DNA from: a virus
Lineage: Duplodnaviria; Heunggongvirae; Uroviricota; Caudoviricetes
Virus record (IMG/VR): IMGVR_UViG_2534681674_000025
DNA: 35,774 bases
Strand: one strand, 5' to 3'
Shown: positions 11,745 to 12,791 of the stretch, one piece after another
Layout of the letters: each line of letters begins with the position of its first letter
How positions within the stretch are numbered: the stretch's first letter is position 1
Program-made: the position numbers and the translations under genes
Notes under the pieces: model-generated
Databases searched by the model: none
The model's input: the letters and a program-made list of their open reading frames with translations, nothing else
What the model was told of the DNA's origin: nothing

Positions 11745-12791
11745 TCAGGCTGTGGGCTGGGTGTCTAACAGTGCGTAAGGGTTAAAGCGGATCACCTCTT
11801 CGCCCAGCCAGTCATTGATGTGCTTCATGGCCTCCATGACGGGCATCAGCTCGTTAATTGCGTAAACCCGCGCGGCCTTCTCCACATCACCGAACGCACT
11901 TTTTTCGCCCGGCATCGCCCCCATCAGTTGCGGTGGAACGCGGTGCGCAGCCAGCACATCATCACGGGATGCAGCCTTAACATTCATGAACTCATCCTTT
12001 GCGGTGATCTGCTGGAACGGCAAAATTTGCACCCCCTCTTTGCCCCCGTTGGGCGCATGAATGAGCACGTTTTTAAACGCACCACCACCACGTGCACCCT
12101 GTAGCGTTTCTTTCAGGGAGTCCATGCTTTCGCGGTTTACCTGCGCCGCACCGATGTAGATGATGCACCCGGCGTGGGATCCGTTGTCGTAATACAGTTT
12201 TCTGAACATGTCCGCCGAATGAGACAGGCTGGCCGAGAGTAATGCGCCGAGATATTCCGGCATGCCGTAGATTTCCTGGTTAATGTCAGGATTCATCAGG
12301 TGGCACACTTTGCCAGGGCGAAACTGAAACGCGTCCTTACCATCCTGCACATACCACCATGATTCAAGATCGCTTCCGCGTCGCATTTATTTCGCCAGGG
12401 CGTGCCGTAATTTAAGCGGTTCGCCGAGCATATTGCTTCGAAGCTCAAGGAATGCGTTGCCGAACACAAACCAGTCCAGCGCCAGCGCCGAGAAATCCTG
12501 CCGGGAAAGCAGCGGGTGCGGAATATAGCAGCCGAGCAATACATTGCGCTTAAAGTAAAGCGCAGACTGATGCCAGGACGTTTGCCGGGCAGCTCTTGCC
12601 AGACCGTACCAGTCCACCGGGGTTTCATACCATCGCCCGTTATCGGCACAGTACATATTGTCCAGTAAATCATGCCCGGTCAGGCGGTAAGGGCCGTCAA
12701 ATGTGAATGCACTGAGCGATGATTCTTTCCTGAGCGCATCAGCGAGATCAATGCGTGAACTCATGCGCACTTTTTTATTTTTTCTGCTCAT
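11745..12791 (-). pseudogene. Q: Portal protein (gpQ homologue) interrupted by an in-frame TAA codon
   Basis: Two ORFs in the same frame (134 aa and 213 aa) separated only by a TAA at 12387-12389 (...LRHALAK*MRRGSDLESWW...); combined 348 codons match P2 Q (about 344 aa as recalled). Confidence 0.8.

Follow-up and report, generated by a model that had tools for sequence, protein, structure and literature searches.

The portal gene of the P2-like prophage described here is split at codon 135 by a single nonsense mutation, and this very probably reflects neutral decay under relaxed selection, the gene having become a pseudogene recently, in a single lineage, when the prophage was already defective. 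The window, by which is meant the whole stretch of 35,774 nucleotides that was analysed, is one P2-like (Peduoviridae) prophage of 35.8 kb, with the integrase at one end and a hok-family gene at the other. It can be aligned over its whole length, at 99.9% identity, with a prophage of Escherichia coli OkiPb01713 (hereafter H1), which is located between yecA and a hypothetical-protein gene, upstream of a tRNA-Leu/Cys/Gly cluster. A further relative is Escherichia phage Chuche (PP925824.1), a deposited phage genome from mud, whose portal is 99.7% identical to that of the window; it represents an isolated, viable phage of this clade.

The interrupted portal gene

The features of the portal region are as follows.

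11745 to 12791, minus strand: portal pseudogene (P2 gpQ-type, PBSX family), 348 codons plus stop, broken at codon 135
12389 to 12387, minus strand: ochre TAA at codon 135, ancestral codon TAC (Tyr135), produced by a plus-strand G to T change at 12387
12387 to 12791 with its stop, 12390 to 12791 without, minus strand: N-terminal fragment ORF, 134 aa, ending in LRHALAK
12386 to 12384, minus strand: ATG (the Met136 codon), 3' neighbour of the TAA and start of the C-terminal fragment ORF
11745 to 12386, minus strand: C-terminal fragment ORF, 213 aa, starting with MRRGSDLESWW
12791 to 14542, minus strand: large terminase subunit (gpP-type), intact, with Terminase_5, Terminase_6N and Terminase_6C domains

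The preliminary description had read the portal homologue as two ORFs in the same frame separated only by a TAA, and on this the sequence and the ORF list agree: the coding (minus) strand runs ...CTG GCG AAA TAA ATG CGA CGC GGA... and the two fragments abut in one frame. Their lengths of 405 and 642 nt sum to 1047 nt, the length of the intact gene in relatives, so there has been no indel, and three loci (L001, L002 and L003) and phage Chuche have intact portal genes of 1047 nt that are collinear with it. Between the window and H1 just one of the 1047 nucleotides differs, a C to A transversion on the coding strand, which at the last base of a conserved Tyr codon turns TAC (Tyr135) into TAA. The lesion is thus a single nonsense substitution and not a frameshift, as had been proposed. 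The proposal that the combined length fits that of P2 Q also holds, there being 348 codons as against 344 in the P2-type gene Q of phage fiAA91-ss, with 45% amino-acid identity. A member of the portal family is a single uninterrupted polypeptide of about 340-355 aa; the TAA at codon 135 precludes this here, and the gene has the form of a nonsense pseudogene, with an in-frame stop where close relatives have a sense codon in an otherwise collinear frame.

Its neighbourhood is that of a P2-type head gene. The portal directly follows the large terminase gene, its upstream neighbour in the operon, whose stop overlaps the portal start, and both are divergent from the scaffold, capsid and small terminase genes. 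Q closes the P-Q operon, with no further gene on the minus strand after it, so that the stop is not expected to have polar effects on other genes. A scan for sigma-70 promoters between 11200 and 14800 returned no sites, as expected given that P2 late promoters are Ogr-dependent. Terminator-like sites were called by scan on the minus strand at 11415-11397 and 11288-11268. A hairpin at about 11722-11695 (GGGGCAT...ATGCCCC), just beyond the end of the portal gene, was considered as a terminator and rejected, as it has no T-run and was not called by the scan. About 310 nt downstream of the portal stop there is a candidate cohesive-end site, on the plus strand at about 11417-11435 (GGTGACGGGGGAACAGCCC), which by eye agrees at 13 of 19 positions with the annotated 19-nt cosL of fiAA91-ss in the same orientation.

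Recurrence of the stop in independent assemblies

A stop codon seen in one sequence might be an error of sequencing or assembly, the true genome having TAC, and it could be said in favour of this that the nearest complete genome differs from the window portal at this base alone and that the named source, GCA_000194215.2, is a draft assembly. The TAA context, however, was present in six of the seven loci fetched, comprising two NCBI assemblies (GCA_000194215.2 and GCA_002460175.1) and four Logan SRA assemblies (SRR36257468, SRR8942099, SRR36257413 and SRR36257470), all independently assembled. Four of these six carriers are identical to the window across 6-21 kb, and the other two (L008 and L009) differ from it by one and two other SNPs and are therefore distinct isolates. 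The seventh locus, L011 (ERR10818579), was left out of the count of carriers: its contig begins at the ATG, is 97% identical and encodes the same 213-aa product. In public assemblies the 213-aa ORF has been called on 21 contigs and the exact 134-aa product is likewise on record for 21 contigs, and the site itself lies outside any homopolymer. To judge from the assembled sequences, then, the TAA is not an assembly error, recurring as it does in independent assemblies with distinguishable backgrounds, and it is extremely unlikely that the base call is wrong. The exact fragments are also on record as EIG92779.1 (134 aa) and EIG92741.1 (213 aa), both named "phage portal-like protein [Escherichia coli 97.0246]", and strain 97.0246 is an STEC of serotype O5:H- (PMC4551483).

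Ancestral codon, conservation and rarity

The preliminary description had proposed an alignment with intact portal genes as the means of identifying the ancestral codon, and such an alignment gives TAC, Tyr. Codon 135 is TAC in the portal genes of E. coli OkiPb01713, MMC-J-0050 and DEC5B, those of the two remoter E. coli prophages showing 24 and 28 differences, mostly synonymous; phage Chuche too has the ancestral base. The motif A133-K134-Y135 is invariant in an alignment of seven Peduoviridae portals reaching down to 41% identity, and across 60 homologues with 48-79% identity position 135 is occupied by Tyr in 56, Phe in two and Asn in two. At the adjacent position 136 the same 60 proteins have Thr in 47 cases and Met in six. 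Met136 is already present in the intact close relatives of the window portal, and the ATG that follows the stop is thus not an evolved start.

The frequency of the stop was assessed with a 71-nt probe centred on it. The segment is matched in 1064 complete E. coli genomes and the TAA allele was found in none of them (0/1064), nor was there any exact match to the probe. Other truncated products of the portal family do occur in E. coli assemblies (proteins P0137, P0020 and P0039), including one of 230 aa, present on 908 contigs, and one of 265 aa, named "portal capsid protein Q", whose cluster has 364 members; both forms are widespread, which indicates that independent truncations of the portal are common in P2-like prophage remnants.

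Portal fold and the consequences of the stop

That the gene is a portal homologue of the P2 Q type, as first described, is borne out by its position after the large terminase, its identity of 45% to gpQ and its family score. Repaired to Tyr at position 135, the protein has the same sequence as WP_000087811.1 from H1 and reaches 216.9 bits against TIGR01540 (portal_PBSX), for which the cutoff is 166.05. As encoded, the N-terminal fragment scores 37.2 bits and the C-terminal fragment 162.2 bits, both below that cutoff; the latter fragment also matches the Pfam family Phage_portal (PF04860, E=2.2e-13). The gene is thus a member of the PBSX/P2-gpQ portal family by descent, context and fold, and the products that it now encodes fall short.

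A sequence search of solved structures returned only distant portals, of the HK97 family or the GTA (E=1e-5), and none of the P2 family, and residue 135 was placed on an AlphaFold2 model of the intact cluster representative P0001. The model has a mean pLDDT of 73.9, with values of about 95 for residues 80-170 and below 50 for residues 1-39. It has the wing, stem, clip and crown of a portal, and its top Foldseek matches in the PDB are all portals, namely those of the GTA (6tba, E=2.5e-12), HK97 (8cez/8fql) and T5. In the model the wing sheet consists of five strands (112-119, 125-131, 136-139, 145-147 and 162-166), and residue 135 is situated between the second and third of these in the best-modelled sheet; the long stem helix (181-202) and all that comes after it, further helices included, are downstream of that point. 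On this model, the stop bisects the wing beta-sheet and removes the stem, clip and crown. The 134-aa product is predicted to consist of a low-confidence disordered N-terminus, some helices and two strands of the wing domain.

A portal is a dodecamer at a single vertex of the capsid, through which DNA packaging is supported, and a capsid requires 12 copies of the protein. With translation of the P-Q transcript stopping after 134 portal residues, the product would be without half of the wing beta-sheet and without the stem, clip and crown, the parts that would make up the DNA channel and serve as docking sites for terminase and neck. From general portal architecture we infer that portal function has been lost: a functional dodecameric portal would not be formed and there would be no packaging-competent heads.

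Other lesions and the order of events

Two further lesions had been noted in the preliminary description, one in gene S and one an insertion of IS629, and both exist.

9649 to 10957, plus strand: IS629 (IS3 family), 1309 bp, with AAG on both sides, at the same site in H1
21875 to 22510, plus strand: pseudogene of gene S (tail completion / virion morphogenesis), with codon 65 now amber (TAG)
22067 to 22069, plus strand: the S amber codon, CAG (Gln65) to TAG, the ancestral CAG being found in phage Chuche

The OkiPb01713 prophage has the same TAG in S, where the gene is annotated as a pseudogene with an "internal stop", and among 1046 complete genomes the amber allele occurs in one, which is H1. 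IS629 occupies the accessory region between the partition genes and the cos site and portal. The S amber and IS629 are both shared with H1, the portal of which is intact, and so both predate the portal stop. By parsimony, the comparison places these two lesions in the ancestor shared with OkiPb01713 and the portal stop at a later point, confined to the 97.0246 lineage. Tail completion in P2 requires gene S; if the gene is equally essential here, the prophage would already have been non-infectious when the portal mutated, and its prior defectiveness through S is inferred on that footing.

The two prophages are separated by very little. Outside the IS there are nine SNPs in about 34.5 kb. Polarised with Chuche, the changes on the window's branch are the portal nonsense mutation, an R49L missense in gpU and three synonymous substitutions, and two changes belong to the branch of H1; two more, one synonymous and one intergenic, are unpolarised. 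With about 5-7 substitutions, the window's branch is too short for a dN/dS test of relaxed selection. The missense is in codon 49 of the gpU-type tail gene (28630, minus strand), where CGC has become CTC (Arg to Leu, derived according to the Chuche outgroup), and apart from the portal stop it is the only change to a protein that the window's branch has acquired since diverging from OkiPb01713.

The IS629 copies are themselves unlike. Within the element, at 9732-10411, lie 28 of the 37 differences between the window and H1, and their clustering suggests a different IS629 variant or gene conversion; a homopolymer or collapsed-repeat assembly error may also be involved. An A-run at 10021-10025 has five residues as against six in the OkiPb01713 copy, one A fewer, inside a region annotated in the latter as a programmed-frameshift / pseudoknot site. 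In the window orfB (the frame of 9935-10915) is at +1, not -1, relative to orfA (ATG at 9703), so that the normal -1 frameshift would not yield the OrfAB transposase. On one side the insertion trims the 3' end of a 150-aa hypothetical ORF (9225-9677), the end of which as annotated in H1 lies 29 bp inside the IS, and on the other 12 bp separate it from the ATG of an 87-aa ORF (10970-11233), of whose upstream sequence only the AAGGAG ribosome-binding site is left.

Suppression, read-through and re-initiation

The loss of the portal would be conditional if the stop could be decoded, and the prophage might then be viable by nonsense suppression or read-through. An ochre suppressor tRNA decodes both UAA and UAG, and a tRNA-Tyr ochre suppressor would both restore Tyr135 and read the S amber. 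Each of the two lesions is a clean nonsense change of one base in a gene that is intact apart from it, the remainder of the prophage shows no damage when set against H1 and is close to a viable phage, and 12 portal subunits suffice for each capsid. Basal read-through of UAA, low as it is in E. coli, might count for something where so few copies are needed. Against this, no tRNA genes were found in the element (the search covering the window), the stop is absent from all relatives (0/1064 genomes), and UAA is, of the stop codons in E. coli, the one at which termination is most efficient. Folding of the RNA from around the stop and beyond it (12420-12290, minus strand) gave nothing remarkable, with z = -1.84 and 9 of 200 shuffled sequences folding as well, and the flanks are identical to those of intact genes, so that no recoding signal has evolved. 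Programmed read-through, in which the stop would be conserved among relatives and accompanied by a stimulatory signal or an element-borne suppressor tRNA, does not fit these observations, and a rescue by suppression or read-through appears very unlikely. The preliminary description had offered a choice between a defective element and reliance on read-through. The former is supported; the lack of a tRNA gene in the window, the undistinctive fold and the unchanged flanks speak against the latter.

A second route to a working portal would be termination at the UAA, re-initiation at the adjoining AUG (UAAAUG) and co-assembly of the 134-aa and 213-aa pieces. An in-frame ATG does directly adjoin the stop, and gene callers annotate both fragments as separate proteins. 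This ATG is nevertheless the ordinary Met136 codon of the clade, present in intact relatives, and there is no Shine-Dalgarno-like sequence 5' of it. Moreover, an invariant Tyr is lost at the break, which interrupts a beta-sheet modelled with high confidence and does not coincide with a domain boundary. Nor were naturally split portals found among the relatives, which have one ORF: among the best 120 of 2745 homologues none is split at this point, nearly all are 335-374 aa long and the shorter ones are mostly labelled partial or on short contigs, the 60 aligned homologues are single chains of 335-374 aa, and the solved portals matched by the P0001 model are likewise all single chains. The suggestion that close relatives might naturally encode the portal as two polypeptides thus fails, since they encode one, and a two-piece portal is exceedingly improbable.

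Conditional viability by one or the other means, whether a single host ochre suppressor reading both the S UAG and the portal UAA or UAA-AUG re-initiation giving a portal in two pieces, is highly improbable. If true, it would represent a natural phage whose infectivity depends on the decoding state of its host.

Accessory genes and the nature of the decay

The accessory genes of the prophage are intact, and together with the portal stop, the S amber and IS629 this agrees with the earlier picture of a decaying prophage that retains its accessory genes. Between the lysis genes (lysC) and tail gene R there is a 626-aa gene (19511-21391, plus strand) with SASA (sialate O-acetylesterase-like) and DUF6645 domains, which is likely to be a moron, to judge from Chuche, which has nothing at the site. 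A plasmid-type partition module of ParM / StbB-like genes lies beside replication gene A (7927-9200 in the window, 13003-14281 in L004), and the far end (35634-35774) is occupied by a toxin gene of the hok/gef type, both being found in the window prophage and in Chuche; the combination hints that the clade might persist as a plasmid-like or addictive element. A tail-fibre gene contains a tandem repeat at 25448-25799 (plus strand), with a 132-nt (44-codon) unit in 2.7 copies at 90% identity.

It could be argued that the portal stop is a step in adaptive domestication, the host having been selected to lose particle production and to keep useful prophage genes. The genes for the SASA/DUF6645 protein, an acetyltransferase, ParM/StbB and Hok are all intact, and the TAA allele persists in several isolates, which speaks for this view. 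However, the intact lysis genes would still kill the host despite the portal stop, so that it offers no obvious protection, and the element would already have been non-infectious through the S amber. In addition, carriers differ from one another by 0-2 SNPs and form a very small, young clade, as would be expected from hitch-hiking or drift, and the same stop has not arisen a second time in the 1064 genomes. Adaptive domestication therefore seems most improbable.

The reading preferred here remains that of neutral decay. The change of Tyr135 from TAC to the ochre TAA would have arisen recently, in the lineage of 97.0246 and a few close relatives, at a time when the S amber (with IS629) inherited from the common ancestor with OkiPb01713 would already have blocked the production of infectious particles. 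As the prophage was, on this account, already unable to form such particles, the portal stop is best read as neutral decay under relaxed selection and would be neither regulated nor adaptive.

Implications

Nonsense pseudogenes in prophages and the stepwise decay of prophages are already well known, and no new mechanism is indicated and no new biological question raised. The importance of the case is small beyond annotation: EIG92779.1 and EIG92741.1 are the halves of one pseudogene and deserve to be annotated as such, and a complete-looking P2-like prophage of 35.8 kb should score as defective in prophage-prediction pipelines. What is mildly notable is the early stage of the decay and the resolvable order of its three lesions, and as a datable example of very early prophage decay it might serve as a small teaching or benchmarking case.

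Comparison with known systems

The arrangement is that of P2, in which the genes for large terminase P and portal Q follow each other on the same strand and are divergent from those for scaffold O, capsid N and the small terminase M. Set beside the 344-codon Q of fiAA91-ss, the window gene is similar in length, but the frame of P2 gene Q is intact, whereas that of the window is broken at codon 135 and neither fragment reaches the TIGR01540 cutoff. Phage Chuche is closer, with the same structural gene order and ParM-type partition genes in both, but its portal codon 135 is TAC, its S gene is intact with CAG as codon 65, and it is without IS629 and without the 626-aa SASA/DUF6645 gene; its immunity, integrase and tail-fibre-distal accessory genes also differ from those of the window.

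Conditional-lethal amber mutants of P2 are known from the laboratory in head and tail genes, Q and S among them. The portal stop resembles them in being a nonsense mutation, by change of one base, in an essential morphogenesis gene, and the phenotype expected in a non-suppressing host, an absence of infectious particles, would likewise be expected here. In contrast to the laboratory ambers, the portal stop of the window is natural, is fixed in a small wild lineage, is ochre and lies beside a natural S amber. Cryptic prophages accumulate lesions stepwise while most of their genes stay intact, as has happened here with the S amber and IS629 followed by the portal ochre; compared with typical decayed prophages, that of the window is at a very early stage, being of full length at 35.8 kb and, outside the IS, nine SNPs from a relative with an intact portal.
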